A DNA stretch of 64,000 bases from positions 38,501 through 102,500 of the forward strand of contig JAJDCD010000023.1 of assembly GCA_029261035.1 (NCBI GenBank), given 5' to 3'. The stretch is from Candidatus Omnitrophota bacterium (GTDB lineage: Bacteria > Omnitrophota > Omnitrophia > Omnitrophales > JACROU01). The translations under genes and the position numbers were made by a program. Numbering within the stretch: the first letter of the stretch is position 1; every line of letters begins with the position of its first letter. Below are positions 6,001 to 61,264 of this stretch, piece by piece. The notes below the pieces were generated by a model, which saw only the letters and a program-made list of their open reading frames with translations, searched no databases and had not been told where the DNA came from.

Positions 6001-8568
6001 ATGGTTTTTCCTGCCCCGAATGGAGGGAAAGTAGGTTTTCAAAAAACATTAGGTATGGGAAAAGTAGAAGTAATTACTTTAGAGATAACAAGAGAGTCAG
6101 AAGAGTTGGTTTTGCTATTTAAATATGAGGGAAAAAATAAGAATGGAATGGCTAAACTTTATTGGACAGGTCAGGAGTATGTAACAGGGCAGCAAAGACA
6201 GATGGAATTTGTGCGAACCAGTTACGAAAAGCTTGAAAGAGGGGATGAAGTAAGAATTCAAATAGAAGAGCATGAGTTTTTAATTAATAAAAGACATGGG
6301 TTTTTACAGGGAAGTTTTCCTACTCCTGATGGAAAAGAGATAGGAGAAATGTTGTTTCCATCTATGGGAGAAAATGTGGAGTATTTAGATTTTTTTCTAA
6401 TAAAAGAAGAAAGTACGATTTTACTTGAATTCCACTCACGTCAAAAAGGAAAAAAAGAAACGATTATTTCTAGACTTTATTGGAATGGAACAGAGTTTGA
6501 AAGTGATAAAGATATTGAGGTTGGAAAAATCAAAGAGGGGTTTGAATTTCTCTCAAGGGGAATACAGCAAAGGTTTAATGTTGGTCCCTTAAATGAATTG
6601 ATTTCTAAAGGATATGGGAAGCTTCAAGCTGATTTTCCCACCCCTGATGGCAATAAAGTAGGTAGGGTGAAGCCTATGAGCTTAGGACCGAATTTTAAAG
6701 AAATTAGTTTAGAAATATTATTAGAAGAAGGGCAAATAGTTTTGTTTTTTACTTATACAGGCGAAGGAGAAAAAGAGCAAAGGCAAGGAAAAATGTATTG
6801 GGTCCACGATAAGTATTTAACTGAAAAGGAGATGCAAAAACATCGATTAGCTGAAGCGGTTAAAGCGGTTTATAACGGAAGTTTAGATCAATATGAAGTT
6901 GAGGATGTAGTCCTTTATGTGAATAAATCAGTGGGACGACTTAACAGAAGCTTCCCAACTCCCGAAGATGGGGTCGTTGGTAAAATGAAAACAATCGGCA
7001 TAGGAAAGCCGAATGCAGAAGTGAAATTTACAGTTAAAAGAGATGTAAAAACTCAAAAGTTACAACTAGTCTTCAAGTACAGGAAAGAAGGAGAGGTGGG
7101 CTTTAGAGAGGGTCCTGTAATCTTAACTTGGAATGGAACAGAATATGAAACGCCCAAAGAGATAGAGTTGCGTTTAATTAGAGAGGGTTTCCAAACGATT
7201 CAGAATGGAAATCTGAAATCTGTAAGAGTAGGAGAGCTCAACGAATTAGTCTCAAAAGAATATGGAAAACTACAGGGAGATTTTCCTACTCCTGACGGAA
7301 ATAAGATTAAAAGAATAAAATCCTTACGGATGGGCCCTAAACATAGCTATATTGCTTTAGAAATTACCAAAGAAGAAGGTGGGATAGTTTTAATTTTTGA
7401 TTACATCTTGCATGGGACAGCGGAAATAAAAAAAGGGAAGCTTTATTGGATTGATGGCACTTATTTAACTGAAAAAGAGTTTCAAAAGCATAGATTAATT
7501 AAAGCGATTGATGACGTTAATAACGGAGCTCTTTCTTTTGCTGAAATAACAAAACTGGATTATTTTTTAAATTTTAATTATGGGGTTTTGAACGAGACAT
7601 TCCCAACTCCGATAGGAACGAAAATAGGAAAACAACAATCACTTGGAATAGGGGGTCTTCTGGAATCAGTGAAACTAATTGTAGAAAAGGAAATAAGGAC
7701 TCAAAGATTGTTGCTAAAGTTTATTTATAAACGGAAGGGAGAAGCTGATTATCATCCTGAACCCGTCATTTTGTTTTGGAATAAAAAAACAAACAAGTAT
7801 GAAAAATATGTTCGCGAAGTTCAACAAGATGTTTATGAATTTGATCCCAATGAGGAGTTTGAGGGAATGAGTTTGGGAACTCGGTTAGAACGTTACCCCA
7901 AACCAATTCAGGAGGCTTTAAGGCTTGTTAACTTTTTAGATCGAGAAAATATAAATTTAGATTTTTTAGGGCAATATGTGAAACAAATTAGAACGACTGT
8001 AGCGGATCCGTCTGTTTATCAAATTATGGATGTGGTTACGTTTAAAGATCGGATTCGAGATGAAGAGTCTTTGTTAAAGATGGTTCGTATGATTGAGGAT
8101 GGCGGAAAAATTGAAGTGGCTTATAGTGAAGAGGAGCGAGAAGAAGTTCGAGGTTTCTTGAAAAAAGGTGGCTTGCTTCATGGATCATTTAAACATTATT
8201 TCAGAGATGTTTTTGTCCCATACTCAGAATTAGGAAAATCGAATCTGTCTAATTTGATCAAGGTTGTGTTGGTTGATGAGAAGAATATGGGAAGATTGAA
8301 TCAGCTAGAAGAAGACTTTTTTAAGGTGGGTTATGAGAGTCGGTGGTTGGATTATATTCCTGGAATGACAAGCATGCTTTCCAATATCAGCATTGAGGCG
8401 GCTCGAATGAAACGAGAAGGAGTGCCAGATCAATTGGCCCAATATGTTCAAAGTTTTTATGAGACGGGAACAAGCTTCTCTCTTCAGGGAGGAGTCTTGT
8501 TTTTGGATGTGGTTGAAATGTTGAAGACGAGTATTGTAAGGGATCGAATGATTGCGAGGGCGGCGTAG
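34..8568 (+). CDS. Giant secreted tandem-repeat protein (2,844 aa); N-terminal signal peptide, ~400-aa N-domain shared with the 25701..30785 protein, 19 x ~140-aa repeats, unique ~250-aa C-terminal domain
   Basis: Uninterrupted 8.5-kb ORF. N-terminus MTMTQIKKPISIILALCFLFTLVPAESVYA is signal-peptide-like. The motifs FPTPDG (and variants FPSPDG/FPAPNG/FPTPEG) and YWNG recur 19 times at ~140-aa spacing. A terminator-like palindrome follows the stop codon. Confidence 0.85.
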   Translation: MTMTQIKKPISIILALCFLFTLVPAESVYAKHPPIYLSSVPAVPEEWASVKRFSPSKASMGRIYLLEDAHGYIEAQERVLDLLSFLEEKTQVELVGVEGSSEDFNLLLFRSFPNLEKKKSWVRNKVREGELSGADGAAILSNQPMKYFGIEDEQLYQKNLNRYFDVQQQKPNKQIEAFEEKLDKQLSSKLSTTLLEVLNLEERLLHQDQAPYEWMKQLCSYQEILQAPKKLSHIFSLIKRTENDENFHEPLPKLEPEIFLEIKDYFTELKQKLIRSEDEANLLKRRDQFLRLKQLRDLKLTRQEWENLNKDFDELREFFEIQRSYYQTAIKRERSFVKSALNQMESTKQKETILHVGGFHTQGLKEAFLNKNYEVVQITPKWKKERESTYQERMNLIASSKSSLKEPSLVGANLLRGRVEGDVLQDWLSHNNAVEWGVQLIFSAYRLRQHKEKKLFDLLDRLTNHLDSTTPRHEGVASAKNGGSVLKGTEKLMTNGYELTASLSEDEKVVGASLGVKFSEKKILIGRIRTGFRQIEEGRVERVEIGDVSLIVQKKTGRSNHSFPTPDGDRVRKSVNFIAYENLDVIELTIVKGVEGQITLEFSHQKKGEEPKVSKVLWNGKEYERVLNNKEKEKQALIKKIRKAYQQIKSGAAEVGVGDIEPLVNLKFGWLYRTFPTPDGGALKDKKPGFNGRNIKSMDLKLIAAENGEIIFELSYVTKLGETEKTIMYWKENSLLSEKDYHLNKIMNGFKDLKAGNERVLVGGIDFFVRKKQGVLSHLFPSPDGEPLGEGTSIRSGPDIKTLTLSLLKDKANQIFLELHYTKENDEEGVSTLVWHNGKYVLPIKLLDQKFRQGFSDIEAGGSKFDIGEVSPFFNKDYGVSRHTFPTPKGTVKRNSLVRLEKNLDRVELKLLKVDDGSLVLEFEYELKGGAKGSKKVFWNGSKYEADVEKAVRKVKEAYKKVYAGEQKVVIGDASLLVSKERAHLYRVFPMPDGNPRRGSRNIGMQLNVQEIALTVHRGENGHPTLEFLYKKDEEEKILKIYWNGTLFETEKERLINKIRAGFEQVKTQGQEVSIGDVSLLVSKTSGGLQKTFPTPDGGQIDKPKRFGISEDLELIELTIEKDAQSQNILLRFDARKVGETRWSKPVVLVWDGTKFTTDRTKNEVNKELVVQKIKNAFLELQKEKKSIDIGNVTQLVGSKVGYLYNIFPTPDGNKVGKPTTVGLGVNIESISLKIEKDEELVLIFTVKGKNKETKAVRVYWNGKNYEKEYSRFLRKVREGFRLISKSGTTVVELGDVSRIVNTQGGTVYKTFPTPDGATIGKNFSLGTGGKVQGIALTLRKEIKTGRILLEFNYTKIKTKNVLRTQTLYWNPKIKTYLPYVKETQQEVYEFNLEDEFDGASLGDQFDQKKFVIERIQKAYKQIADGKQKVDVGDVSALIDLKKGLFIPRFPAPDGSKKHGAQAVGIGHHVKRVLLTLLKENETLVFKFTYLKEGSSQYQETKLYWNGTNFLLTPKWTRVKIYNAFDAIKPGETISIGDVSSVTNKERGCLLKTFPLPNGGRLGKNQTILSQKNNDVISLKVIKETEELILEFSYSSKNDNKVRRTRIYWNGSAYELEQDWKIRRIKEAYKKLKEGEVKDIGDVSSVINIERGLFQSAFPTPDGRRIKKVYTAAIGADSKQVWMRVRKENGDLTLELDYVKEKEKGTQILYWNGKKFETDFERKIRNIQEGFQRVLEDKTSVFSVLNIDFLVNQKYGYFLRRFPTPNGRQIGNAKLPGFGLNVRNIQLDVIKEDSEMVLSFNYDKEGKDTKSTLKLYWDGHKYLSEEEKKGENNSKEVLIRKIRKGYEVLQKDEKQSIEIGDISLLVSMQRGKFRSFFPTPEGGKLKTMASLYTGVRLESLTLNLKREGEDIVLELSFKRQGDTSLKNIQLYWNGTEFEQFKGKRSKMNEKQDLLKRIADGLKKVRKQEEDTVDIGDVSSVMNMKFGMIAMVFPAPNGGKVGFQKTLGMGKVEVITLEITRESEELVLLFKYEGKNKNGMAKLYWTGQEYVTGQQRQMEFVRTSYEKLERGDEVRIQIEEHEFLINKRHGFLQGSFPTPDGKEIGEMLFPSMGENVEYLDFFLIKEESTILLEFHSRQKGKKETIISRLYWNGTEFESDKDIEVGKIKEGFEFLSRGIQQRFNVGPLNELISKGYGKLQADFPTPDGNKVGRVKPMSLGPNFKEISLEILLEEGQIVLFFTYTGEGEKEQRQGKMYWVHDKYLTEKEMQKHRLAEAVKAVYNGSLDQYEVEDVVLYVNKSVGRLNRSFPTPEDGVVGKMKTIGIGKPNAEVKFTVKRDVKTQKLQLVFKYRKEGEVGFREGPVILTWNGTEYETPKEIELRLIREGFQTIQNGNLKSVRVGELNELVSKEYGKLQGDFPTPDGNKIKRIKSLRMGPKHSYIALEITKEEGGIVLIFDYILHGTAEIKKGKLYWIDGTYLTEKEFQKHRLIKAIDDVNNGALSFAEITKLDYFLNFNYGVLNETFPTPIGTKIGKQQSLGIGGLLESVKLIVEKEIRTQRLLLKFIYKRKGEADYHPEPVILFWNKKTNKYEKYVREVQQDVYEFDPNEEFEGMSLGTRLERYPKPIQEALRLVNFLDRENINLDFLGQYVKQIRTTVADPSVYQIMDVVTFKDRIRDEESLLKMVRMIEDGGKIEVAYSEEEREEVRGFLKKGGLLHGSFKHYFRDVFVPYSELGKSNLSNLIKVVLVDEKNMGRLNQLEEDFFKVGYESRWLDYIPGMTSMLSNISIEAARMKREGVPDQLAQYVQSFYETGTSFSLQGGVLFLDVVEMLKTSIVRDRMIARAA
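1590..7800 (+). repeat. Array of 19 tandem ~140-aa protein-coding repeats (consensus landmarks IGDVS..LV...FPTPDG...L.L...LEF.Y.K......LYWNG..YE)
   Basis: Read directly from the translation. A higher-order duplication is visible: the block ending TQQEVYEFNLEDEFDGASLG (~nt 4180-4250) recurs as VQQDVYEFDPNEEFEGMSLG (~nt 7820-7880). Repeats 16-17 and 18-19 are near-duplicates of each other. Confidence 0.8.
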
Positions 8569-8602
8569 TGACTGTCACCAGGCTGCGTTCTCGCAGACCA
8601 TG

Positions 8603-8626
8603 GTGACTGTCACTACGTTTTTTGGC
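8603..8626 (+). terminator. Rho-independent terminator candidate after the giant gene (GTGACTGTCAC hairpin + T6)
   Basis: gtgactgtcac at 8603..8613 followed by tacgtttttt. A second copy of the palindrome overlaps the stop codon at 8568..8578, with a ctgcg-ttct-cgcag hairpin between the two. Confidence 0.5.
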
Positions 8627-8725
8627 AAATGAGTTATGTCATTCCCTTGGAATGCGGTAATCCAGCGTTGGATGACAGAGGGTGTTTTTTATAGGAGTGC
8701 TTAGTATTTAAGTTACAGTGCCATT

Positions 8726-8749
8726 GTGCCAGGTCTAAAGACCTGGCAC
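8726..8749. repeat. Family F hairpin (GTGCCAGG...CCTGGCAC), copy 1
   Basis: gtgccaggtct-aa-agacctggcac forms a perfect 11-bp stem. The same GTGCCAGG/CCTGGCAC core occurs at 54201..54252 and 61195..61235. Confidence 0.6.
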
Positions 8750-8769
8750 GACAGTCGGACCTTTGTCTA

Positions 8770-8827
8770 GGGGACACGCACTTTTGTCACAATTGCTCTC
8801 GCAATGGTTACAAAAGTTTATGTCCCC
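8770..8827. repeat. Family C imperfect-palindrome repeat (~58 bp), copy 1
   Basis: ggggacacgcacttttgtcacaattg...caatggttacaaaagtttatgtcccc. Near-identical copies lie at 35863..35919 (reverse), 45500..45559 and 60992..61048. Confidence 0.7.
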
Positions 8828-8847
8828 GGCTTCCTTTTTGTTTTTCT

Positions 8848-9879
8848 TTATACTATCTTCAGCACAATCTTTCCGAAGTTTTTTCTGTCTAGCATGTGTT
8901 GATGGGCTTCCTTTGCTGCTTCGAGTGGGAATACTTTATCGATGACGGGTTTGAAGGTTCCTTCTTCTACTTTTTTTATGACTTCGAGTAACTCTGAGAG
9001 ACCTCCCATATAATTTCCCATGATGGACTGTTGTTTCATGAATAAAAACCGAAGATCGATTTTAACTTCGGGGCCCGTGGTTGCTCCGCAAGTAACAAGA
9101 CGTCCTCTTTTTGATAGGGAAGCCATGCTTTCTTCCCATGTAGCAGGCCCTACGTGTTCGAAAACTACGTTCACGCCTTTTCCTTCAGTAATGTCTAAAA
9201 CTTTTTCTGATATTTTTTCTGTGGAGTAATTAATTGTATGATCTGCTCCGAGATCTGTGGCGAGTTTTAATTTTTCGTCATTTCCTGCTGTTGCGATAAC
9301 GTTTGCTCCAATAGACTTTGCAATTTGAATTGCCGCGATTCCAATTCCACTGCCCGCTGCTTGGATTAAAACGCTTTCGCTTTGAATTAATTTGGCTTGA
9401 GTCACAAGCATGTGCCATGAGGTGAGGAATGTAAGTGGAATCGAAGCCCACTCTTCGAAGGTGAGTTTATCTGAAATTGGAATAATGTTTCGTGCGGGAC
9501 ATTTAACCAATTCGGCATAGCCGCCGTCTCTTAGAAAGCCCATTATTTTGTAACTGTCGCACATACTGTCCCAACCGCTTGTGCATGAATCACAAGTACC
9601 GCAAGAAACTCCGGGAGCGATAAGAACTCGGTCGCCGGGTTTAATCCCTTCAACTTCAGCACCTACTTCTTCGACAATACCTGCAGAGTCACATCCTAAA
9701 ATATGAGGAAGAGGAATGGGAACGCCTGGCATGCCTAAGCGAGTCCAAATATCTAAATGATTTAAGGCACAAGCATGATTGCGGACGAGCACTTCCTTTT
9801 CGTTAATCGTTGGATCGTTTACGTCCCCGTATTGCATTACATCTACTTCACCGTGTTGATCAAAATAAACTGCTTTCAT
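8848..9879 (-). CDS. Zinc-binding alcohol dehydrogenase / medium-chain dehydrogenase-reductase family oxidoreductase
   Basis: 343 aa. N-terminus MKAVYFDQHGEVDV...VLVRNHACALNHLDIW is typical of the quinone oxidoreductase/ADH_zinc_N family. Rossmann-like AAGSGIGIAAIQIA motif. An AGGAG ribosome-binding site precedes the ATG. Confidence 0.8.
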   Translation of the reverse strand: MKAVYFDQHGEVDVMQYGDVNDPTINEKEVLVRNHACALNHLDIWTRLGMPGVPIPLPHILGCDSAGIVEEVGAEVEGIKPGDRVLIAPGVSCGTCDSCTSGWDSMCDSYKIMGFLRDGGYAELVKCPARNIIPISDKLTFEEWASIPLTFLTSWHMLVTQAKLIQSESVLIQAAGSGIGIAAIQIAKSIGANVIATAGNDEKLKLATDLGADHTINYSTEKISEKVLDITEGKGVNVVFEHVGPATWEESMASLSKRGRLVTCGATTGPEVKIDLRFLFMKQQSIMGNYMGGLSELLEVIKKVEEGTFKPVIDKVFPLEAAKEAHQHMLDRKNFGKIVLKIV

Positions 9880-14163: not shown

Positions 14164-14259
14164 GGAATTATATTTCCCCGGCGCTCAGACAGCACAAAAG
14201 TGACTGTCACCTGGGGTGACCGTCACTTTTGTGAACTCGCGGCGGGGAAATATAATTCC
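14164..14259. mobile_element. MITE-like palindromic element, family B copy 1 (conserved core CCGGCGCTCAGACAGCACAAAA...TTTTGTGAACTCGCGGCGG with 16-bp perfect inverted flanks)
   Basis: Flanks ggaattatatttcccc / ggggaaatataattcc are exact reverse complements. The core is shared with 35270..35353 and 44890..44970. The element sits inside the nuoD-nuoE spacer. Confidence 0.7.
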
Positions 14260-14966: not shown

Positions 14967-16244
14967 ATGACGGAAAAATTAATTACAAAATATTTAGAAC
15001 TTACGGATGCGAATAAAATAGATGTGTTTGAATCTAAGGACGGCTATAGCCGTATCCAAAAAGTCTTAAAAGAATTAAAGCCAGAAGAAGTGGTTGATGA
15101 AGTTAAAAAATCAAACCTTCGAGGGTTGGGTGGAGCTGGTTTCTCTACTGGGATGAAGTGGAGCTTTATTCCTAAGGATGGAAAGAAACCTGTTTATCTT
15201 GTTTGTAATTGTGATGAGGCTGAGCCGGGCACTTTTAAAGACAGACATATTGTTACATCGACACCTCATTTATTGTTAGAGGGGATGATGATTGCTGCTT
15301 TTGCTGTTAATGCACATAAAGCTTACATATTTATTCGGGGTGAGTACGAACGTCCGTACGAACGTCTGGCAAAAGCGGTTGAAGAAGCTTACGCAAAAGG
15401 GTATTTAGGAAAAAATATTTTTGGTAGTGGTTATGATTTGGACATTGTTGTGCATCAAGGTGCTGGCGCTTATATTTGCGGAGAAGAATCGGCATTACTT
15501 GAAGCTCTTGAAGGAAAAAAAGGTTGGCCCAGATTAAAACCTCCTTTCCCTGCCGTTGTTGGGTTGTTTGGCTGCCCTACGGTGATCAACAATGTTGAGA
15601 CTTTATCGTATTTGCCTTTAGTGATGCAAGGTGGGGCAGATTGGTTTTCGAAATTAGCCGGAGAAGAAAAGTCTGGAGGAACGCGTCTTTTTTGTGTGAG
15701 TGGACACGTCAATAAACCTGGAATTTATGAGCTCCCTGTTGATACAACGTTAAGATCTTTGATTTATGATCATGCCGGAGGAATCCGAGGGGGTAAGCAA
15801 TTAAAAGCAGTTGTCCCTGGGGGTATTTCTGCCCCGATATTAAGTGCTGAAGAAATTGATGTCAAAATGGATTTCGATTCTTTGAGAGCTGCTGGAACCA
15901 TGGCGGGATCTGGGGGTGTGATGGTGATGGATGAAGATACCAATATGGTAGAAGCGTTGATGGTTGCTTCTCGTTTTTTTGCTCACGAATCTTGCGGCCA
16001 GTGTTCTCCTTGTCGTGAAGGAAGTGCCTGGCTTTATAAAATTGTGAAACGTATTAATGAAGGTGAAGGCCGTGTTGAGGACTTAGATAGTATGTTGTCT
16101 ATTGCAGGTAATATTTCTGGAACGACTATTTGTGCGTTAGGGGATGCTGCAGCAATGCCTGTCACAAGTTATATTAAAAAATTTAGAAGTGATTTTGAAG
16201 ATTATATTAGTGACTGTCACTTGCCTGTGGAAACACAGAGCTAA
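14967..16244 (+). CDS. nuoF: NADH-quinone oxidoreductase subunit F (NADH/FMN binding, 4Fe-4S)
   Basis: GLGGAGFSTGMKW, ESCGQCSPCREG motifs. A GTGACTGTCAC palindrome (16210..16220) lies within the last codons. Confidence 0.93.
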   Translation: MTEKLITKYLELTDANKIDVFESKDGYSRIQKVLKELKPEEVVDEVKKSNLRGLGGAGFSTGMKWSFIPKDGKKPVYLVCNCDEAEPGTFKDRHIVTSTPHLLLEGMMIAAFAVNAHKAYIFIRGEYERPYERLAKAVEEAYAKGYLGKNIFGSGYDLDIVVHQGAGAYICGEESALLEALEGKKGWPRLKPPFPAVVGLFGCPTVINNVETLSYLPLVMQGGADWFSKLAGEEKSGGTRLFCVSGHVNKPGIYELPVDTTLRSLIYDHAGGIRGGKQLKAVVPGGISAPILSAEEIDVKMDFDSLRAAGTMAGSGGVMVMDEDTNMVEALMVASRFFAHESCGQCSPCREGSAWLYKIVKRINEGEGRVEDLDSMLSIAGNISGTTICALGDAAAMPVTSYIKKFRSDFEDYISDCHLPVETQS

Positions 16245-16313
16245 GTGACTGTCACTATTAGGGCATAGAAAAAATTAGAGAAAGACGGTGACAGTCACTA
16301 AAGTGACAGTCAC
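16245..16313 (+). repeat. Family A palindrome array upstream of nuoG
   Basis: gtgactgtcac...ggtgacagtcac-taaa-gtgacagtcac-ctaaaagcc. Its architecture is collinear with 14339..14410. Confidence 0.75.
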
Positions 16314-16347
16314 CTAAAAGCCAATAGCTATAGGAGTTCGAAGAGTT

Positions 16348-25700: not shown

Positions 25701-28700
25701 ATGAGGTTTTTTTTAGTATTTCAGCAACAATTGAGAGTCCTAACCTATTTCCTTATTCTTACCTTCGGACTCGACTCTATTTCCCTGGCCCATGCTCAAT
25801 CTGTTACTGCATCCGTGAACGTTGCACCGAGCATTGGGTTGGGGGATTATTCTTCTTTTCCAGATAATCTTGGAAATATCATTCAAAAAAACGAAATATC
25901 TAAAAATGCCTTTAATCTGATTCACTTACAAGACGCCCACGCTAATCCTGAAGCCCAAAAAAAAATTGCGGAACTCATTCGATACTTTTCAGAAGAACAA
26001 GGGTATAACACTGTTTTTGTTGAAGGAGCGTATGGGAGATTGGATAAACGTTATATTGAATTTACAGATGATTTTTCATTAAATCAAAAAATTGCAGAGC
26101 GCCTCACTGCTTTGGGAGAGTTTACAGCGCCGGACGTTTATTTATCAAAAAATAAAAAAAGCACCCTTCAATTTTTAGGAATCGAAGACCCCCAACTTTA
26201 CAGAAAAAATGTAACGCATTTAAAAAAGATATACCAATCTAGAGAAGAAATTGAAAGTTGGATTGAAGCAAAAAAATTAATATTGGATCGAAAAAACTCT
26301 CGTCTAAAAAACAAAAACCTTTTCTATTTATTTAAAACATTTTTAGAACTTTCTGAAAAAACGAACAATTTCAGCCGTCATTTAGTTCAATTAAATACGA
26401 TCTCCAAAAGAGAGTTGGGAAGAGACCTTCAGGATGCGAAAGAACAAATAGAATATCCTAATATTGTTCGATTTTTAAGACTCTTTAAAGAGCAAAAGCT
26501 GGACCGCGAAAAAGCTCGTGTGGAGTGGGAGGAAATAGTAAAAACAATCTCGAAACAAAAGCAGTTCTTAAAGAGAGCACCTTCTTTTAAAGAACTCAAC
26601 GATCTAAATGTTAGGGTTCTTCTAGAAACCTTAGTGGAGGAGCAGGGGGTTGATTTTAAAGGGTTTCCCATTTTTTCAAAGTACGCAAAGGCTCTTATTT
26701 ATCAACAAGAAATGGATGGGGCGGCTTTGTTTGCAGAGCTTAACACGTGGCTCTTATCATTAATCAATCATTTTAGTTTGGAAGCTCAAAGCAAGAATCT
26801 TTTCAAAGAAATTCAGCTTTTTATTTTAATTAAAAAACTTTTGAAGCTCGAGTTAAAAAGAGAAGAGTGGGGTCTGATTAAGGATGAAGAAATCAAAGAT
26901 AAAGAAGTGCAAAACTTAATTGATGAAGCGCTTCTTTTTTATAAAGCTGCTGAGAAAAGAGAACAACCCTTTTTGGAACAAATTCAGAATCAGATCAAAA
27001 ATAAAAAAATAAAAAAAGCAATTTTACTTACGGGAGGATTTCATACTCCTGCGTTATTGAAACATGCAAATGAAGATGGCTGGAATTCTGTGGTTATTGC
27101 TCCTCAGCTTACTTCAGCAGTGGATCAAGATGATTATTTCAAAAATTTTATGGGAAGAGACCCTAAAGACATTGATGTCTCACAAGTAGTAACTCAGCCT
27201 TATTCTATTTCTCCAGAAACGGCAGTTGCGCTTGGTGTCGATCTTGCTAATAGACAGCAATTAGTAAACACTATCACTAGAGAGTTTGTGAAGGCGAGTA
27301 GCCTTGGGGAAAGGAAAGAAATCCTTCCGGGGTTTTTTGAAGAACGCCCTCTTTTTATTCCTAAAGACGGTCGTATTTTACGTTCCAATGAGAGACTTTT
27401 ACTTCAAGCAGGAGACCACTATTTTTATGTTGATGAAAAAAGAGTTGTTCAGGTGGATTCGACTGGGAAAAAAATAAAGCAAATTAAAATTGCAAATAAG
27501 CCTTTAAAACGATGGGAACTCTCTGAAGGAAAGAAGATGGTTTCTCGATCGCATTGGGCGTCTAATGAGAAAGAATTTATATGGTTGAAACACTATTTTC
27601 AATGGCAGAGATTGGCTAAAAAGGTTTATTTGAACGACCCGGTACTTATTGGACAAGGAGTTACATCTAAAGTTTACTCAATGAACGTTGCTATGCCTCA
27701 AGACGGTGTTGTTAGAACCTTAATAGGCACAGAATTTGTGAAGAAAAAAGACAAGACGATAGGCAGAAAAAGGGATTATGGTTTAGTGGGATATGAGGTT
27801 CAAAAAGGAGATTTCCAAGATGAGCCTGTTCCTGTGGGGGCAGTTAGAAAGTTGATTATAAAGACAAGCTCATTTAGCACAAAACGCTCTATTGCTTATC
27901 AAGAACTGATTCGCGATCGATTTGCGAGTACTTTTATTGCAAAGACTGCAGAGTTGCCTTCGAGGCACCCTGTAGCGCATGAGTTAGGATTAGAGCAGTT
28001 TGGCCGCGAACGCATCTTGCTTCAAGAGCCTTTGATTCCTTTAAGCCAAATTTTAAGAGAAGCTCGTGGCTATGAGAGACAATATTGGGCTAATCAATTT
28101 GTTCGGAGAGTGGAGGATTTTTGGAAGAGAGGCTACGTAGACTTAGATGCCAGGACAGATAATTGGGGCGTTAACAGCGAGGGTAAGCTTGTGTTTCATG
28201 ACTTTGATTTCGTTATGAGCTTATCGGAGATGGATAAGGGAATTAAGGGTAAAAGAGAAGACAAGTTAACCGTGTTGAGTCGTAAAATTCAGTTTTTTGC
28301 TAATTTTATTATTAATAATGTGTCATTTTTATATTCTTTAGATCCTGAGTTGGCTAAGCACTTTTATGAGCGTGTTGTTCATATTTCTTTTGAGTTAGAA
28401 AATAAGCAGAAGCTTTATTTGTTTAATGATATTTTGTCTAACGCGGCCGGGACATCTAAGCAATTAAAAAACTGGGAACAGCATTGGAAACGTATTGAGG
28501 TATTTGCTAAGCAGCTGATTCAAGCACATGAAGAACAAGCTTCTAAAGAAAAGCGAAAAGAAATAGTGAAAGATGTTTTCAATTTTTTAAGAGCTTCAGT
28601 GAAGAAAAGGCAAGCATTGATGACTCAGGTTTTACGTTTAGTAGCTCCGGCTTCACAAAGCGAACTTAAAGGAGATCAAATTAGAAGGCAAAAAGGGCGC

Positions 28701-30785
28701 ATCATTAAAAAATGGGCAGAGAAATATTCAGAGCCCTTCGCTTCGAGAGATCATGATTTTGAAAAATTTATAGAGCTAACAACAAAGTTAGTTACAGAAG
28801 GCTTTAGTGGCTTTGTGGATGGGGATCGAGCAGCAATTAGAGACATTATTGACAGTCGTCCTGTGCAATATGAAGGTGTTAGAGAGGTTGTTGTTGGTGA
28901 GATTGTGAGAATAATGAATGGCATCAACTCTTCTACATTAAATGCATTTTCCAGAAAACAAATAAATAATTTTTTCAGTTTTTTGGTTGCTAGAGATTTT
29001 TTCAAAAGACATTTTACTGCAGGAGAATCATTCGATGGCGTTCAAGAAATATATATAGGTTCTAAAGCGCCTCATTTTCAATTTCAGATAGCATCCAACC
29101 AATTGCAACCCTACCACTTTGTCGTTTTGCGTGTCCCTTTTGGAGATAGAGGAAAACATCGAGTGGTGATTTTTGACATGAGCGTTTTGAATGGCGAAAA
29201 AAGCCAAACTCAATTTAGAGGTATTTCTGAACAGGCTTATTCTAGCTTGTTATGGCAACCCTTCCGAGTAGATGGACGCGTTGTGGAAATGAGTTTGAAT
29301 ATAGATTCGTCTCAACAGCAGACGATGGAATTGCCGGAGGATGAAATTGGAGGAACTCGGCTACCTTATTTCTCTCAGACCATGATTGGAAGACTCGTTG
29401 ATTGGATGGGGGATATACAGGCTTTTGAAGCTCAGTTTGCAGACACTCAAGTTGTTCCACATGCTCCTCGAGAGGTTCCTGTTTTTACAAAACCAAGGCA
29501 TTCCAGATATAGACCCAGACATCATAGAATGGGGTCTCGGTCTATTCGAGCTAGAAAGAGAAGAAATATACAATTAGATCGGAATGATATAGAAACTAAT
29601 GTTAGACCAGGAAACTCTGCGAACTCGAGAACGTATGTTGATGCCACTCAAGCACCTAAAACGCGAGCAAAGTCAGAGGTTGTGAAAAAAAGACGTCGTT
29701 TAGGGTTGGGAAGACGGCCAGTAGAATTGCCGCCGTTGTCACCCAGAACTTCTTTTTCACCACCGATTCCAACGTCTGTGCCTAATCCGTTAAAACGATT
29801 TAAACCTATGTCGTTACCGCAAGGAGGTCTAACGTCATTTAATCGCCCTCCAGCTAGACAAAACCCAACTCCTCAGGGAGAAGGGCCGAACGTTGCGGAT
29901 CTTAGGAATCAGCATAAACGTATGTTTGGAAAAAGGCTTTCTATTTGGGATCATAGGATGCCTCCTCAGCAAGAGAAAAGACGCGGATTGAGGGGAAATA
30001 GTTTAGGCTCTATTGTTTCTGTGGCTAATCTTGTTGCAGATAAAATTGTTGCTCCTCAAGACTTAGAAAATGAAGTCATTGTATCAGCTGTTTTGAGACA
30101 GGAAGTATCTTTGGAACAACTCTTTAAACTTAGAGAGCTCTTTGATCAGGTGGGAGGAGATGGTTTTTATAAGAAATTGTTTGGCGCCAACTCCAACTTA
30201 AGTGTTGTTCTGATGCAATCTTCTCAAGTGACGGATGCGTTGGCCGCGGGGATAGATTGGGCTTTGGTGAATCAACCGAATTTAATTCTTCGAATTATTA
30301 ATGACGGAACGCAAAATGAGCAGATTGAACAATTGAAGCGCAAGGTGAAAGATTTAAATGTAAATCATAAAGCAGAGAGATTTAAAATCGTGATGTCTGA
30401 TTTGAGCGTTGTTGATACAATTAATTATATTCTCCGAGACAAAGGGAATCTCTATAAAGTGGCTCATACTTTAGATTCCGGTTTGGCAAGAATAGATGTA
30501 ACCAAGCGAACTGTTGTTTTGGCTAAGGAGCAAACCTTAGAAGATATTGATAAAGGGCTTTCCTCTAAAGTTATATTCATTCCTTCTGAAGTTGAAGGCT
30601 CAGCTCTTTATCAATTTGGAATTTCTACGGCTTTAGCAGCAAATGAGGGACGATTAACAGCAGACCTAAAAGAACATCTACGAATCTCCAAATCTGGACA
30701 TTTTGTTTTCCAGGATTTTTCTCGAATCCTTCATGAGCTGATGACAGCACACCAGGCTTTAAAAGCTATTCTACAAGCAGCCTAG
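25701..30785 (+). CDS. Giant secreted multidomain protein (1,694 aa): signal peptide, N-domain paralogous to the 34..8568 protein, kinase-like domain, basic/Pro-rich low-complexity tract, C-terminal domain
   Basis: Signal-peptide-like N-terminus (…LILTFGLDSISLAHAQS). LIHLQDAHANPEAQ / VFVEG / GGFHTPALL align with LLEDAHGYIEAQ / VGVEG / GGFHTQGL in the first giant protein. See findings for the kinase-like motifs. Confidence 0.85.
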   Translation: MRFFLVFQQQLRVLTYFLILTFGLDSISLAHAQSVTASVNVAPSIGLGDYSSFPDNLGNIIQKNEISKNAFNLIHLQDAHANPEAQKKIAELIRYFSEEQGYNTVFVEGAYGRLDKRYIEFTDDFSLNQKIAERLTALGEFTAPDVYLSKNKKSTLQFLGIEDPQLYRKNVTHLKKIYQSREEIESWIEAKKLILDRKNSRLKNKNLFYLFKTFLELSEKTNNFSRHLVQLNTISKRELGRDLQDAKEQIEYPNIVRFLRLFKEQKLDREKARVEWEEIVKTISKQKQFLKRAPSFKELNDLNVRVLLETLVEEQGVDFKGFPIFSKYAKALIYQQEMDGAALFAELNTWLLSLINHFSLEAQSKNLFKEIQLFILIKKLLKLELKREEWGLIKDEEIKDKEVQNLIDEALLFYKAAEKREQPFLEQIQNQIKNKKIKKAILLTGGFHTPALLKHANEDGWNSVVIAPQLTSAVDQDDYFKNFMGRDPKDIDVSQVVTQPYSISPETAVALGVDLANRQQLVNTITREFVKASSLGERKEILPGFFEERPLFIPKDGRILRSNERLLLQAGDHYFYVDEKRVVQVDSTGKKIKQIKIANKPLKRWELSEGKKMVSRSHWASNEKEFIWLKHYFQWQRLAKKVYLNDPVLIGQGVTSKVYSMNVAMPQDGVVRTLIGTEFVKKKDKTIGRKRDYGLVGYEVQKGDFQDEPVPVGAVRKLIIKTSSFSTKRSIAYQELIRDRFASTFIAKTAELPSRHPVAHELGLEQFGRERILLQEPLIPLSQILREARGYERQYWANQFVRRVEDFWKRGYVDLDARTDNWGVNSEGKLVFHDFDFVMSLSEMDKGIKGKREDKLTVLSRKIQFFANFIINNVSFLYSLDPELAKHFYERVVHISFELENKQKLYLFNDILSNAAGTSKQLKNWEQHWKRIEVFAKQLIQAHEEQASKEKRKEIVKDVFNFLRASVKKRQALMTQVLRLVAPASQSELKGDQIRRQKGRIIKKWAEKYSEPFASRDHDFEKFIELTTKLVTEGFSGFVDGDRAAIRDIIDSRPVQYEGVREVVVGEIVRIMNGINSSTLNAFSRKQINNFFSFLVARDFFKRHFTAGESFDGVQEIYIGSKAPHFQFQIASNQLQPYHFVVLRVPFGDRGKHRVVIFDMSVLNGEKSQTQFRGISEQAYSSLLWQPFRVDGRVVEMSLNIDSSQQQTMELPEDEIGGTRLPYFSQTMIGRLVDWMGDIQAFEAQFADTQVVPHAPREVPVFTKPRHSRYRPRHHRMGSRSIRARKRRNIQLDRNDIETNVRPGNSANSRTYVDATQAPKTRAKSEVVKKRRRLGLGRRPVELPPLSPRTSFSPPIPTSVPNPLKRFKPMSLPQGGLTSFNRPPARQNPTPQGEGPNVADLRNQHKRMFGKRLSIWDHRMPPQQEKRRGLRGNSLGSIVSVANLVADKIVAPQDLENEVIVSAVLRQEVSLEQLFKLRELFDQVGGDGFYKKLFGANSNLSVVLMQSSQVTDALAAGIDWALVNQPNLILRIINDGTQNEQIEQLKRKVKDLNVNHKAERFKIVMSDLSVVDTINYILRDKGNLYKVAHTLDSGLARIDVTKRTVVLAKEQTLEDIDKGLSSKVIFIPSEVEGSALYQFGISTALAANEGRLTADLKEHLRISKSGHFVFQDFSRILHELMTAHQALKAILQAA
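27600..28330 (+). other. Atypical protein-kinase-like domain inside the 25701..30785 protein
   Basis: Glycine-rich loop IGQGVTSKVYS, downstream VKKK lysines, catalytic-loop-like VDLDARTDNWGV (D-x4-N spacing as in HRDLKPEN), and HDFDF in the DFG position 14 residues later. Confidence 0.5.
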
Positions 30786-33209: not shown

Positions 33210-33863
33210 ATGGCAAATCCAAATCTTTATATAAAACAGATGGAAATGGGTCCTATGCAGAATTTTGTTTATTTTGTAGGGGATAAGAAGACAAGAGAAG
33301 TGGCAGTCGTGGACACCGCTTGGGACGTCCCTGAGATATTAAAGGCGGCCGAAAAAGAGGAAGTTACGATTACGCATGCTTTGGTTAGCCACTATCACTT
33401 TGATCATACCAATGGTCTTCCAGATTTGTTGAAAGAATTAGATGTTCCTGTTTATATTAATAAAGCGGAAGAGCAGTGGATGAAAGGATTAGCAGCAGAA
33501 AATACAAAAGCTGTAAAATCAGGAGATAAGATTAAATTAGGAGAGATTGAGATTGAGTTTTTGCATACTCCTGGACACACTCCGGGTTCTCAATGTTTCT
33601 TAGTGGATGGAAATTTAATTTCGGGGGATACCTTATTTATTGATGCTTGTGGAAGAACAGACTTGCCTGGAGGGAATCCAGAAGATTTGTATCATAGTTT
33701 AACGACGAAGTTGATGAAGCTGGACGACAGCACTATTTTATTTCCAGGGCACAATTACTCAGAGCTACAAACAGTGACTATGGGAGAACAGAAAGAGACA
33801 AATCCTTTTCTGAACATTCCCACCTTAGATGATTTTTTAAAAAAGTTTGGATATAAAGAATAG
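33210..33863 (+). CDS. Metallo-beta-lactamase-fold hydrolase (glyoxalase II-like)
   Basis: HYHFDHTNG (HxHxDH) metal-binding motif; 217 aa. Confidence 0.8.
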   Translation: MANPNLYIKQMEMGPMQNFVYFVGDKKTREVAVVDTAWDVPEILKAAEKEEVTITHALVSHYHFDHTNGLPDLLKELDVPVYINKAEEQWMKGLAAENTKAVKSGDKIKLGEIEIEFLHTPGHTPGSQCFLVDGNLISGDTLFIDACGRTDLPGGNPEDLYHSLTTKLMKLDDSTILFPGHNYSELQTVTMGEQKETNPFLNIPTLDDFLKKFGYKE

Positions 33864-33907
33864 CGGGTAGCGCGTAGCGTAGAGCGTATAGTTTCTGTTG
33901 TCTTTTT

Positions 33908-33946
33908 CCTTCTCCCTCCGACGGAGGGAGAAGGTTAGGATGAGGG
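33908..33946. repeat. Family D element (CT-rich hairpin + GTTAGGATGAGG tail), nested within a larger ~120-bp palindrome (33866..33990)
   Basis: ccttctccctcc-gac-ggagggagaagg then ttaggatgaggg. Flanked by inverted gcgtagcgtagagcgtatag / ctatacgct..ctacgctatacgc. Confidence 0.65.
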
Positions 33947-34004
33947 TGGTGGGCCCTATACGCTAAACGCTCTACGCTATACGCTAGTAGACAAAGGATA
34001 AAAC

Positions 34005-35249: not shown

Positions 35250-35269
35250 GAAGTTGGGTTTTGTTGGGC

Positions 35270-35353
35270 GACCTGGAAAGGTTCCCGGCGCTCAGACAGC
35301 ACAAAAATTGTGATGCGATTTTTGTGAACTCGCGGCGGGAACCTTTCCAGGTC
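35270..35353. mobile_element. MITE-like palindromic element, family B copy 2
   Basis: gacctggaaaggttcccg / cgggaacctttccaggtc perfect inverted flanks around the conserved core cggcgctcagacagcacaaaaat...cgatttttgtgaactcgcggcgg. Confidence 0.7.
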
Positions 35354-35388
35354 GCTTAAGTTATAACTTTTTTTTGGTATTGGGGGTT

Positions 35389-35748: not shown

Positions 35749-35862
35749 AGTAAAACACCTCTTGCTTTTATAAGTCTAGCATATGATGCTGGGATGTGCA
35801 TATTTCTCTATCTCTATATCAGTTATTAAGTTGCAGACATTACTTCACATTTTTAGGGAGTC

Positions 35863-35919
35863 GGGGACATGGGCTTTTGTAACCATTGCTAAGTAATTGT
35901 GGCAAAAGTGCGTGTCCCC
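35863..35919. repeat. Family C repeat, copy 2 (reverse orientation)
   Basis: ggggacatgggcttttgtaaccattgctaagtaattgtggcaaaagtgcgtgtcccc. Confidence 0.7.
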
Positions 35920-36016
35920 TATACAAAGGGTGGGCTGTATTCCTTTTAAAACCATTAGCAGCAATGACATTTATCCTATTTACTAAATTGACTAATAAGA
36001 TATAATCTTTCACCTT

Positions 36017-44376: not shown

Positions 44377-44838
44377 TCAACTTTTTTGTTGAGAGTTTTC
44401 TAGTTTGCTTTTCTCTGAATTAATTTTTGCATTAGGATTATAGGTTAATGTGTTGTTTGGCCCTTCCCAAACAGTAATGTCCTGAAGTGTTGCTCCCTTC
44501 AATAGTTCGGGTTGGTTTAATTCGTTATAAAACCAAATAGCAATATTTTCAGATGTAGGGCTTATCTTGTCGAACGGAGCTATGATGTTGAAGAAGTTAT
44601 GATCAAAGCGTGATGAGAGCTCTTTCAATTTTGTTTCAATTTTAACGAAATCAACGCTAATGTCTTCGTGGTCTAAATTATTTGAAGTCAAACGAGCTTC
44701 GACACACCAGCTGTGTCCATGAATAGGTTCAGGCTCTCCATAATAGGCTGTTAAATTATGGGCGGCTTCGAAACGCGTCTCTACTTTGATCGTGTATACA
44801 GAATCTGTCATAATTTGAAAGGTCCTTTTTCTAAGCAA
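44377..44838 (-). CDS. queD: 6-pyruvoyl-tetrahydropterin synthase family protein (QueD-like)
   Basis: TRFEAAHNL...PIHGHSW zinc-binding His motif of the PTPS/QueD family. Confidence 0.7.
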   Translation of the reverse strand: MLRKRTFQIMTDSVYTIKVETRFEAAHNLTAYYGEPEPIHGHSWCVEARLTSNNLDHEDISVDFVKIETKLKELSSRFDHNFFNIIAPFDKISPTSENIAIWFYNELNQPELLKGATLQDITVWEGPNNTLTYNPNAKINSEKSKLENSQQKS

Positions 44839-44889
44839 TATTTGAGAATTATTGTAACATAGAGGGGATAAGGGCGATAGAGGAGCGTA

Positions 44890-44970
44890 GAAAAACAGTT
44901 TCTCCGGCGCTCAGACAGCACAAAAATAACCCGCGATTTTTGTGAACTCGCGGCGGAGAAACTGTTTTTC
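44890..44970. mobile_element. MITE-like palindromic element, family B copy 3
   Basis: gaaaaacagtttctccg / cggagaaactgtttttc perfect inverted flanks around the conserved core ggcgctcagacagcacaaaaat...cgatttttgtgaactcgcggcgg. Confidence 0.7.
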
Positions 44971-45066
44971 TACTTAGGGGCTATCGCTGGGGTGGTGGGG
45001 GTGTGAGCAAAGAGTCTTAACGTCGAGTAAGACTCTTTGCAAGAGATCCTTTGTAGTTTCTCTTAA

Positions 45067-45091
45067 TTGTCATCCCCGTGAACGGGGATGC
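45067..45091. repeat. Family E hairpin, copy 2
   Basis: ttgtcatccccg-tgaa-cggggatgc. Confidence 0.55.
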
Positions 45092-45116: not shown

Positions 45117-45428
45117 ATGGTTACGGTTGATTTTAGTGCTTTTCCAGTTGGGAAGGGCGAACATGTATCTAAGCAGGTTGCGAAGTCTTTGGATATTATT
45201 GATAAGAGTAAACTAAATTATCAGTTCGGTCCTATGGGAACGACTATAGAAGGTTCTTGGGACGAAGTGTTCAAAGTAGTTAAGAAGTGTTTTTTGGCTA
45301 TGGGTAAGGACGCGAATCGAGCTTATGGAACAATTAAGATTGATTATCAATTCAAAGATAATAAGGGGATGAAAGCTCGTGTGAGTCGTGTTGAGAAAAA
45401 GCTGGGTAGAAAGCTGAATAAGGCTTAA
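45117..45428 (+). CDS. MTH1187/YkoF-family (UPF0045) small protein
   Basis: MVTVDFSAFPVGKGEHVSKQVAKSLDII...GPMGTTIEGSWDEV matches the YkoF/MTH1187 fold pattern. The start was set at MVTV, which follows an AGGAGG ribosome-binding site. Confidence 0.6.
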   Translation: MVTVDFSAFPVGKGEHVSKQVAKSLDIIDKSKLNYQFGPMGTTIEGSWDEVFKVVKKCFLAMGKDANRAYGTIKIDYQFKDNKGMKARVSRVEKKLGRKLNKA

Positions 45429-45499
45429 AGAACAATAGAAGATGAAAGGATGTTCATTTACTAGATGTATTTTAATTAGTATAGCCTGTCCTCTGCCTA

Positions 45500-45559
45500 G
45501 GGGACACGCACTTTTGCCACAATTACTTATTCGTAATGGTTACAAAAGTCCATGTCCCC
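45500..45559. repeat. Family C repeat, copy 3
   Basis: ggggacacgcacttttgccacaattacttattcgtaatggttacaaaagtccatgtcccc. The ORF-track entry 45442..45636 is an artefact of this repeat. Confidence 0.7.
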
Positions 45560-45661
45560 ATCTTCCTTTTTTTTACTTCTGGAAAAGGGCTTGCTTTTTA
45601 GGGGTAATTTTAGTAGTTTTATTCTTTTGTTTATGAGTTTTAGAGCTCGTTACATTATAGG

Positions 45662-54149: not shown

Positions 54150-54200
54150 AATTTATAATACTAAGACTGTAGTAGAGGTCTGCCTAAATAGGCCACCCCC

Positions 54201-54252
54201 CAAAGTGCCAGGCCATTCGCGACAAAAATGTAGTGAATGGCCTGGCACTTTG
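54201..54252. repeat. Family F long hairpin (18-bp perfect stem) upstream of mutY
   Basis: caaagtgccaggccattc-[16-nt loop]-gaatggcctggcactttg. Confidence 0.65.
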
Positions 54253-54276
54253 GAAGAAAGTTGAATTTTTGTTGCT

Positions 54277-60991: not shown

Positions 60992-61048
60992 GGGGAAATG
61001 GATTTTTGATACTGTTGCAAAGCAACTGTGTCAAAAATGCGTGTCCCC
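60992..61048. repeat. Family C repeat, copy 4 (divergent inner region)
   Basis: ggggaaatggatttttgatactgttgc-aaa-gcaactgtgtcaaaaatgcgtgtcccc. Confidence 0.55.
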
Positions 61049-61194
61049 ACAACCCCACTTATATATGTAAAACCTAATCAGCGTAAAAGGGCTAGAATTA
61101 TACAAGGGACGGCACCTCTATATCAAGCTTTAAAATATTTTTGATTATAGGACAGTTTATGGGGTTTTCCTACGACCCTACAAAATGCTCCACT

Positions 61195-61235
61195 CCCTAA
61201 GGTGCCAGGCTCCTGAGGAGCCTGGCACCTTAGGG
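61195..61235. repeat. Family F long hairpin (19-bp perfect stem, 3-nt loop)
   Basis: ccctaaggtgccaggctcc-tga-ggagcctggcaccttaggg. Confidence 0.65.
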
Positions 61236-61264
61236 ATAAAATGGCTACAGTTATAGGACATTAA

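Follow-up and report, generated by a model that had tools for sequence, protein, structure and literature searches.

The window, by which we mean the whole 64-kb stretch of Omnitrophota DNA analysed here, has a G+C content of 35-41% and carries housekeeping genes (the nuo operon, leuCD, cytochrome c biogenesis, fatty-acid synthesis, gltB, and mutY) together with two giant ORFs that lack Pfam domains; no tRNA was found in it. Its LeuC has its best named relatives among Candidatus Omnitrophota MAGs. Between its genes lie four copies of an imperfect palindrome, Family C, all of them intergenic. They are given below with the strand of the "CGC strand", the better-folding strand being the opposite one.

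8770..8827, + strand: copy 1, core, subfamily A; the CGC strand reads GGGGACACGCAC... and the opposite strand folds better
8751..8835, + strand: copy 1, extended unit, consisting of a 19-nt left flank ACAGTCGGACCTTTGTCTA, the core, and an 8-nt right flank GGCTTCCT
35863..35919, - strand: copy 2, core, subfamily A, reverse orientation
35855..35938, - strand: copy 2, extended unit, common flanks as in copy 1
45500..45559, + strand: copy 3, core, subfamily A
45481..45567, + strand: copy 3, extended unit, common flanks as in copy 1
60992..61048, - strand: copy 4, subfamily B (the subfamily of the sister genome), reverse orientation

All four copies that an earlier note on this DNA had listed were present, far beyond chance. 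Specifically, a 17-nt arm pattern allowing up to three mismatches matched the window nine times, against 0.66 matches expected from shuffles, and eight of the nine were both arms of the four copies; a two-arm pattern matched exactly four times, at the four copies, with 0 matches expected from shuffles. Copy 4, for which the note gave plain coordinates, actually lies in reverse, like copy 2, and belongs to a diverged subfamily that reads ATTTTTGACACAGTT... in place of the ACTTTTG(C/T)CACAATT... of copies 1-3. Its extension on the + strand reads ...GTGTCCCC-ACAACCCCACT. The proposed length of ~58 bp fits the palindromic core, but the repeated unit is longer in copies 1-3, in which alignment with flanks revealed ~19 nt in common before the CGC arm (ACAGyCnnnCCTyTGyCTA) and ~8 nt after the non-CGC arm (GrCTyCCT). 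Copies 1-3 are a dispersed repeat of ~85 nt with a 58-nt palindromic core. Beyond the shared ~19 and ~8 nt their flanks are unrelated, which excludes the segmental duplication that the earlier note had considered.

Copy 1 lies 20 nt beyond the stop codon (8848) of an alcohol dehydrogenase (ADH) gene at 8848-9879 and is bordered on its other side by a convergent giant ORF that ends at 8568. Copy 2 falls between divergent genes, at a distance of 97 nt upstream of leuC (36017). Copy 3 is flanked by two co-directional genes, one thiamine-binding-protein-like (ending at 45428) and the other FabA-like (starting at 45662), and copy 4 lies 45 nt upstream of a gltB-like start (60946). Two further ORFs run straight across the repeat, one at 8763-8945, where it overlaps the ADH gene's 3′ end on the other strand, and one at 45442-45636; regarding both as artefacts of the repeat, as had been suggested, is reasonable. 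A tRNA/tmRNA identity for Family C was rejected, as was a HIP1-type cyanobacterial context, there being no HIP1 in the window. A sequencing-adaptor artefact was also rejected, given that loops and flanks differ among copies and that such repeats are present in isolate genomes. Literature on Omnitrophota palindromes and on the repeat sequence strings yielded nothing relevant.

The Family C hairpin is 52-60 nt long and is composed of a basal stem, a linker, and an apical stem-loop. The basal stem is conserved and formed by two 12-mers of the type GGGGACA(C/T)NNAC, the linker reads TTTTG/CAAAA, and the apical stem-loop is variable, such that subfamilies differ entirely in it yet stay complementary. 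Differences between the arms (CGC versus TGG/TAA, and CCACA/TAACC further in) recur in all 22 copies from two genomes, the second being the sister genome described below. Most of this asymmetry consists of C·A mismatches on the strand reading GGGGACACGCA..., which become G·U (G·T) wobbles on the complementary strand, and a near-perfect hairpin therefore forms on one strand only. In all 17 copies folded, stability was greater on the strand opposite the CGC strand (mean -30.3 versus -19.6 kcal/mol), with fold energies of -26 to -37 kcal/mol on the favoured strand.

On this structured strand, 5′-GGGGAMATGG...GCGTGTCCCC-3′, the 22-copy alignment supports 25 pairs, with 96.2% of cells paired. Seven stem pairs showed changes on both sides, such as the replacement of U-A by C-G at columns 15/46 in three copies, and the covariation score was 0.199, compared with 0.084 in shuffles and 0.017-0.099 when partners were slid. 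Among the 22 copies the U8·G53 wobble is invariant, the G10·G51 mismatch is almost fixed, and the 3′ arm TGCGTGTCCCC has a single substitution (TGTGTGTCCCC in the copy L119b). The Family C hairpin itself is under constraint, with one structured strand. Thus, the asymmetry is conserved and not the product of drift, as the earlier note had argued, and the protein-recognised site that it read from this asymmetry is plausible, although much of the pattern has a structural explanation in wobbles that make one strand the hairpin. The lopsidedness, in other words, has a plain physical meaning. A single structured strand is a signature that points to a single-stranded substrate, either DNA handled by a tyrosine transposase or RNA, between which this signature does not distinguish.

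Copies outside the window came from one genome. An exact-arm scan of 241 million metagenome records recovered 13 copies, all in two contigs (Ga0315338_1000003 and Ga0315338_1000074; 2.17 Mb and 0.46 Mb) of JGI metagenome 3300032138, herein the sister genome, in which LeuC is 88% identical to that of the window and which is syntenic with the window over ~20-47 kb. When the fetched loci were searched with a profile, five more copies came to light in the sister genome and no further one in the window, giving at least 18 sister-genome copies in about 190 kb, all in the subfamily of window copy 4 and none at the sites occupied in the window. One stretch of 2.7 kb contains four of them. Conversely, two orthologous intergenic sites, compared as the earlier note had proposed, are empty in the sister genome. 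Upstream of its leuC the counterpart of the copy 2 site is empty with gene order kept, and at the copy 3 site the spacer is about 60 nt shorter and without the element, again with gene order kept. Since all sister-genome copies lie elsewhere and both orthologous sites are empty, Family C is a scattered element and does not bound a larger unit. No copies were present in 21 kb of a more distant relative (L128, LeuC 81%), in which the region upstream of leuC is not syntenic. Family C is lineage-restricted, dispersed, polymorphic between the two species, and gained or lost site by site.

The stable strand coincided with the G-rich strand in 11 of the 12 scorable sister-genome loci and with the sense strand in 17 of 18 copies. 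An orientation bias of this kind was absent among the window copies, of which two of four at best conform. Lagging-strand synthesis uses the G-rich strand as its template, and it is there that single-stranded transposition of the IS200/IS605 type operates. Genes are co-oriented with GC skew, so replication and transcription are inseparable in this bias.

Nine of the 18 sister-genome copies lie inside seven giant ORFs, always in sense orientation and in one frame, and are translated as G(K/T)WI(F/S)DT..VS(K/E)MRVP, a peptide of 17-19 aa. They occupy two recurrent positions in one family of paralogous giant proteins. The window holds no in-ORF copy, and its own homologue of this family (25701-30785, 33-37% identical) lacks an insert at both positions; at this identity, which is too low for the purpose, insert boundaries in the giant ORFs are undefinable. 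The nine copies are 90% identical to each other, compared with 57-58% for their 90-nt coding flanks and 55% for shuffled sequence, and being far more alike than their flanks they have not simply co-diverged with the genes that carry them. Gene conversion, or selection acting on a function in RNA, could also account for their high identity. Additionally, one copy lies 9 nt upstream of a 5S rRNA gene, after an apparent 23S 3′ end (recognised by eye, not by Rfam), while another lies downstream of the 5S gene, past a terminator-like hairpin and T run. Five further copies are located 13-50 nt after a stop codon, between co-directional genes. Family C thus shows that such repeats are tolerated in frame in giant genes and directly upstream of a 5S rRNA gene.

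In-frame palindromes are reportedly known from Rickettsia, in which Ogata and colleagues are said to have described the palindromic element RPE-1 in 2000. The sister-genome copies resemble RPE-1 and intragenic REPs (PMC3733652) as in-frame palindromic insertions that are translated as an extra peptide. However, Family C measures 52-60 bp and RPEs about 100-150 bp, a relation in sequence is not expected, and the Family C host genes, unlike those of RPEs, form one paralogous giant-ORF family with two recurrent positions.

A different kinship was indicated by the arms. The Family C arm GGGGACAC(GCA) fits the motif GGGGWSAS in all 22 copies, the G-to-A change of L119b falling outside the eight nucleotides of the motif; the opposite arm, GGGGACAT or GGGGAAAT, does not fit it. 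Di Nocera et al. (2013) named a set of transposase genes TIRYTs and found that the inverted repeats flanking them share GGGGWSAS and occur as moderately abundant families of singles, dimers, and clusters (PMC3733652). Quentin et al. (2018) placed the TIRYTs as the HTH-bearing subclass 2.1 of TnpA_REP-like Y1 proteins, quoted the repeat consensus as GGGG[AT][CG]A[CG], and found no REP-like partners for this HTH-bearing RayT/TIRYT clade (PMC6006769).

The resemblance extends across phyla. A symmetric-palindrome scan over 185,579 reference genomes yielded, among the matches listed, at least 108 loci with arms of the form GGGGACAG(G/T)C(A/C)CTTTTG, in Atopobiaceae, several Clostridia, Steroidobacteraceae, Usitatibacteraceae, Elusimicrobiota, Desulfonatronospira, and others. 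The Family C arm GGGGACACGCACTTTTG is identical at 16 of 17 positions to GGGGACAGGCACTTTTG, which recurs, among the matches listed, as palindromic doublets in Actinomycetota, Bacillota, Elusimicrobiota, Desulfobacterota, and Proteobacteria. Four positions that were left free in the scan pattern read GGCA in four phyla. In some lineages (Atopobiaceae, Bacillota KA22, and Elusimicrobiota) a lineage-specific, covarying stem closes a hairpin in which the 12-mer forms the loop, the complementary run averaging ~8 nt; stems of this kind from several phyla are CGTGCAAA/TTTGCACG, TGGGACAAA/TTTGTCCCA, and ATAACAAA/TTTGTTAT. In Family C and some other lineages the 12-mer merely ends the palindrome, and in Family C nothing complementary to the TTTTGNCAC linker precedes it, so that half-units are not hairpins on their own. 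Clustering of ORFs over the 108 cross-phylum loci was dominated by spurious high-GC ORFs.

Five loci from Actinomycetota and Bacillota (L099, L096, L057, L126, and L127) contain Y1_Tnp genes flanked by inverted GGGGAC(A/G)G units, and palindromes that match the Family C arm at 16 of 17 positions lie next to such genes in these two phyla. The lead to these genes was a tblastn search with RAYT and IS200 queries, and Pfam then verified them: three scanned proteins matched PF01797 (Y1_Tnp) with 56-58 bits against a cut-off of 23, and for L126 and L127 the PF01797 assignment came from precomputed Pfam annotation. The three proteins, when aligned, share a conserved HTH-like tail at the C-terminus, which no Pfam HTH model matched in the scanned proteins. 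In Olsenella sp. An290 the Y1 gene has the string GTAG-CGTGCAAA-GGGGACAGGCAC-TTTTGCACG upstream and, at its stop codon, the inverted partner of that string. Further verified Y1 loci with inverted units came from Olsenella sp. SW781 and the Bacillota MAG KA22, and database homologues with flanking inverted units were present in Anaerosalibacter and in Desulforamulus putei (as the variant GGGGACGG). Close homologues of these proteins are named "REP element-mobilizing transposase RayT" by NCBI and JGI.

Because its arms match the GGGGWSAS repeats that flank TIRYT/RayT genes, Family C may plausibly be a protein-recognised site as the earlier note held. No transposase or recombinase lies nearby: Pfam scans of 32 window ORFs (of 53 with at least 100 aa) detected no transposase or integrase, tblastn with Y1-transposase queries found no Y1 transposase in the whole window, and no PF01797-like gene was present in the ~190 kb of the sister genome examined. 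In a RayT profile search the best 120 matches were all from Atopobiaceae or Clostridia-like sequences, with none from the contigs of interest. Pairs of arms 0.7-3 kb apart that enclose a transposase were absent from every locus examined. As neither the window nor those ~190 kb yielded a Y1 gene, an enzyme that acts in trans is assumed.

Taken on the sequence evidence, Family C is probably a non-autonomous hairpin repeat mobilised as single-stranded DNA by a RayT/TIRYT enzyme in trans. The broader proposition, under which Family C is a palindromic repeat of a selfish or mobile nature and does not serve the host as a signal, is very probable. Under the proposed mechanism, the genome would encode, at another place, a tyrosine (Y1) transposase of the HUH type and the RayT/TIRYT clade, which would recognise the hairpin on single-stranded DNA and would cut and paste or copy it without target-site duplication. 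Inserted copies would then be transcribed within host RNAs, with any effect on these RNAs being secondary. Support comes from the dispersal to non-orthologous sites, the selection on pairing, the strand specificity, and the kinship of the arms to TIRYT/RayT repeats; from these we infer that a RayT/TIRYT gene is present in the genome and acts on Family C. No direct target duplication was found at the boundaries of the 22 copies, as expected for HUH transposition; this was read from a comparison of flanks, since no filled/empty pair is resolved to the nucleotide. The flanks tend instead to extend the palindrome (TT...AA) or to carry an extension (A/T)CAACCCAACT.

The main rival to this explanation is that Family C is a functional RNA hairpin, acting as an mRNA 3′-end stabiliser, an RNase processing site, or a translational pause, with its spread being incidental. 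This is compatible with mobility and does not exclude it, but as an account of Family C we consider it rather unlikely. The orientation of the better-folding strand as sense in nearly all sister-genome copies, and the positions just before the 5S rRNA gene and shortly past stop codons in operons, are what such a hairpin would lead one to expect; RNA structures classically show G·U wobbles and compensatory changes, and REPs are known as RNA elements (PMC3733652). However, in the window only copy 1 (with the ADH gene) and copy 2 (with leuC) can be read as sense, copies 3 and 4 being antisense to both of their neighbours. An Rfam family was rejected, with Rfam 15 giving no gathering-score match and none at E <=0.5 that overlaps any copy. 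Moreover, G·T wobbles are equally expected of a single-stranded DNA substrate, the nine copies within ORFs are translated, and a function in RNA leaves unexplained how near-identical copies arrived at new sites.

Family C could alternatively be a MITE, an internally deleted derivative of an IS with a DDE transposase, mobilised via its terminal inverted repeats with target-site duplication. Like the bacterial MITEs (Correia/NEMIS, RUP, and Nezha), its copies are small, dispersed, non-coding, and bounded by inverted arms, and they are intergenic or operon-internal and co-transcribed with neighbours. Additionally, cores of 52 or 58 nt would need a duplication of 2 nt (or of 5 or 8 nt) to preserve the frame, and the in-ORF copies are in frame. 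MITEs, however, have target-site duplications (TA, for example) and a cognate DDE IS. No direct repeat of any length accompanies the 22 copies, whose flanks rather extend the palindrome, no IS or DDE transposase with Family C ends was found in any locus examined, and the arms match repeats associated with Y1 (HUH) transposases. A MITE origin is therefore improbable.

That Family C is an intrinsic (Rho-independent) terminator, repeated by happenstance, is very unlikely. The window copies are all intergenic, and the CGC strand of copies 1 and 3 leads into T-rich runs within 6-7 nt (GGCTTCCTTTTTGTTTTT and ATCTTCCTTTTTTTT), but what follows the stable strand is rich in A and has no T run, and a consensus scan called none of the copies, in agreement with the earlier note, which had set aside a generic terminator. 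Copy 4 precedes a start codon and copy 2 lies in a divergent promoter region, nine sister-genome copies are in ORFs, and the one directly before the 5S rRNA gene is likely part of the rRNA transcript. Finally, the earlier note's suggestion of a recombination site, or of copies that pair up as the ends of a larger mobile element, is scarcely credible. The asymmetric arms do recall sites with distinct left and right halves, and orientations alternate (+, -, +, -), with inverted pairs 1/2 and 3/4 at 27 kb and 15.5 kb. However, copies 2 and 3 are missing from the sister genome while the genes around them keep their order there, which rules out these copies as ends of something larger. The intervals are housekeeping operons (nuo, leuCD, cytochrome c biogenesis, and fab) with no integrase or transposase among the ORFs scanned, each copy is a complete, self-contained hairpin, and sister-genome copies are single, in ORFs, or clustered at irregular spacing.

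Among the known systems close to Family C are the REP and REPIN elements, which are mobilised by RAYTs (Bertels and Rainey 2011, PMC3116915; Nunvar 2010). In both, two inverted short units form a long imperfect hairpin in which pairing is kept by compensatory change, the hairpin is strand-specific, and extragenic copies are dispersed without target duplication as a within-genome population with subfamilies. Unlike REPs, in which one end of each unit bears a GTAG (or CGTC) tag, Family C has no such tag (copies 1-3 have cTAG, aTAG, and cTAG, and the other 19 have unrelated sequence), and its half-units, which do not fold alone, differ in this from REP units. Family C numbers in the tens of copies, and REP/REPIN elements in the hundreds. 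To our knowledge, Omnitrophota is not among the phyla in which REPINs have been described.

The TIR repeats of the TIRtron/TIRYT systems share with Family C the GGGGWSAS terminal motif, read in Family C within GGGGACAC (PMC3733652, PMC6006769), and are likewise dispersed, each Family C copy being an inverted dimer of two arms. Their enzymes are Y1/HUH proteins with a C-terminal HTH-like tail, the type seen here in the five Actinomycetota/Bacillota loci. Family C differs in that only one arm fits the motif and in that copies occur in frame inside ORFs and beside a 5S rRNA gene; its wobbles are fixed and one mismatch almost so, in contrast to the perfect palindromes of most relatives in other phyla. 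Integron attC sites resemble Family C as imperfect palindromes with a conserved base and a variable centre in which conserved mismatches single out one strand. However, Family C lacks the attC R/L core sites (GTTRRRY; RYYYAAC...GTTRRRY), no integrase or cassette array was found in the window, and the copies are scattered among housekeeping genes.

Family C is a new GGGGWSAS-type repeat family of the Omnitrophota, belonging to a class that is already in the literature, and it extends this little-studied "TIR repeat" class to a mostly uncultured phylum. It is possible, if doubtful, that hairpin repeats across bacteria form one superfamily, united by an almost fixed 12-17-mer, GGGGACAG(G/T)CAC-TTTTG, of which Family C would be the Omnitrophota branch. 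Were this so, the DNA recognition code of one transposase clade would have stayed the same in at least five phyla, and Omnitrophota would have co-opted the repeats as translated modules of 17-19 aa at two fixed positions in a family of giant proteins and as flanks of a 5S rRNA gene. The suggested conservation of a recognition 12-mer over at least five phyla goes beyond the finding of Family C itself, and the arms conserved across phyla offer a concrete candidate recognition sequence for the HTH-bearing RayT/TIRYT clade.

The window also holds at least four further palindromic repeat families, one of which, tagged with GTAG (8564-8617), carries a sister 12-mer, GGTGACAGTCAC. Together with Family C, these families create spurious ORFs in the window. 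They may also fragment short-read assemblies of the source genome, as is suspected because the public contigs found are shorter than 2 kb, one of them spanning copy 1 and stopping 48 nt past it.

Family C, the ~58-bp asymmetric palindromic repeat, bracketed the 5S rRNA gene (L122 204-319) of the sister genome (the relative whose LeuC is 88% identical), with one copy on either side.

Family C copies around the 5S rRNA gene
L122 143-194: in the spacer that follows the apparent 3' end of the 23S gene, 9 nt upstream of the 5S gene
L122 387-438: downstream of the 5S gene, past a hairpin and T run that resemble a terminator

The same genome carried a second family of asymmetric palindromes, of the form ATTGCGAGGC-N10-14-GCCGTGGCAAT, with 15 copies across the ~190 kb read and none in the window.

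Copies of the second asymmetric palindrome family in the sister genome (not all listed)
L111 9602-9631
L113 9296-9329
L116 11720-11753
L122 2785-2818
L122 3119-3152
L123 2237-2270

Copies of this second family within giant ORFs were read in frame as ..IARQ.T.E.WQS.. and used the same two protein positions as Family C. The window's giant ORF at 25701-30785 encoded 1694 aa with no Pfam domain and represented an indel between the two genomes, given that the syntenic sister locus (L111 4696-5055) spanned only ~360 nt; at least seven paralogous giant ORFs were found elsewhere in the sister genome.

Another palindromic element, present in three window copies, shared the common core CCGGCGCTCAGACAGCACAAAA[variable]TTTTGTGAACTCGCGGCGG, here termed the CCGGCGC-core element.

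CCGGCGC-core element copies
Window 14164-14259
Window 35268-35355
Window 44887-44973

Each of the three was enclosed by arms of 14-17 nt that were perfectly complementary to each other and differed from copy to copy. The element looks like either an insertion into the loops of hairpins that were already there or a structured RNA whose outer stem covaries, and the three window copies had no Rfam match. Comparison with the syntenic sister locus (L111 18359-18754) showed that a NUDIX gene located there was missing from the window (44838-45078), where the spacer instead held the CCGGCGC-core palindrome at 44887-44973.

One of these elements also contained a member of the GTAG-tagged palindromic family, the building block of which in the window was the near-palindromic 12-mer GGTGACAGTCAC.

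GTAG-tagged units
Window 8564-8617: doublet abutting a giant ORF stop
Window 14193-14233: doublet nested in the CCGGCGC-core element 14164-14259
Window 16207-16316: four units between nuoF and nuoG

This 12-mer differed by a single base from the cross-phylum arm motif GGGGACAGTCAC. Onion-like nested palindromes were observed in Olsenella sp. SW781 (L002 4040-4190) and in a Steroidobacteraceae MAG (L097), in which the 17-nt unit GCGTGCAAAGGGGACNG occurred four times on one side and, inverted, two to three times on the other; the 12-mer alternated with short linkers, and these linkers were complementary across the axis.

A further hairpin family in the window had the form GTGCCAGGC...GCCTGGCAC.

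GTGCCAGGC...GCCTGGCAC hairpins
Window 8720-8750
Window 54200-54253
Window 61194-61236

In the MAG of an uncultured gammaproteobacterium (L101 4037-4130), the same motif lay at the center of a palindrome of the form GGGGACAGTGACTTTTG...CAAAAGTCACTGTCCCC. Separately, at window 33861-33986, heptamer-like TAGCG(N)G units arranged in inverted runs flanked a CCTTCTCCCTCC...GGAGGGAGAAGG hairpin on both sides.

Finally, the GC skew of the window flipped from positive to negative at ~56000, where the dominant gene orientation changed too, and this switch may mark a replication terminus or origin region.
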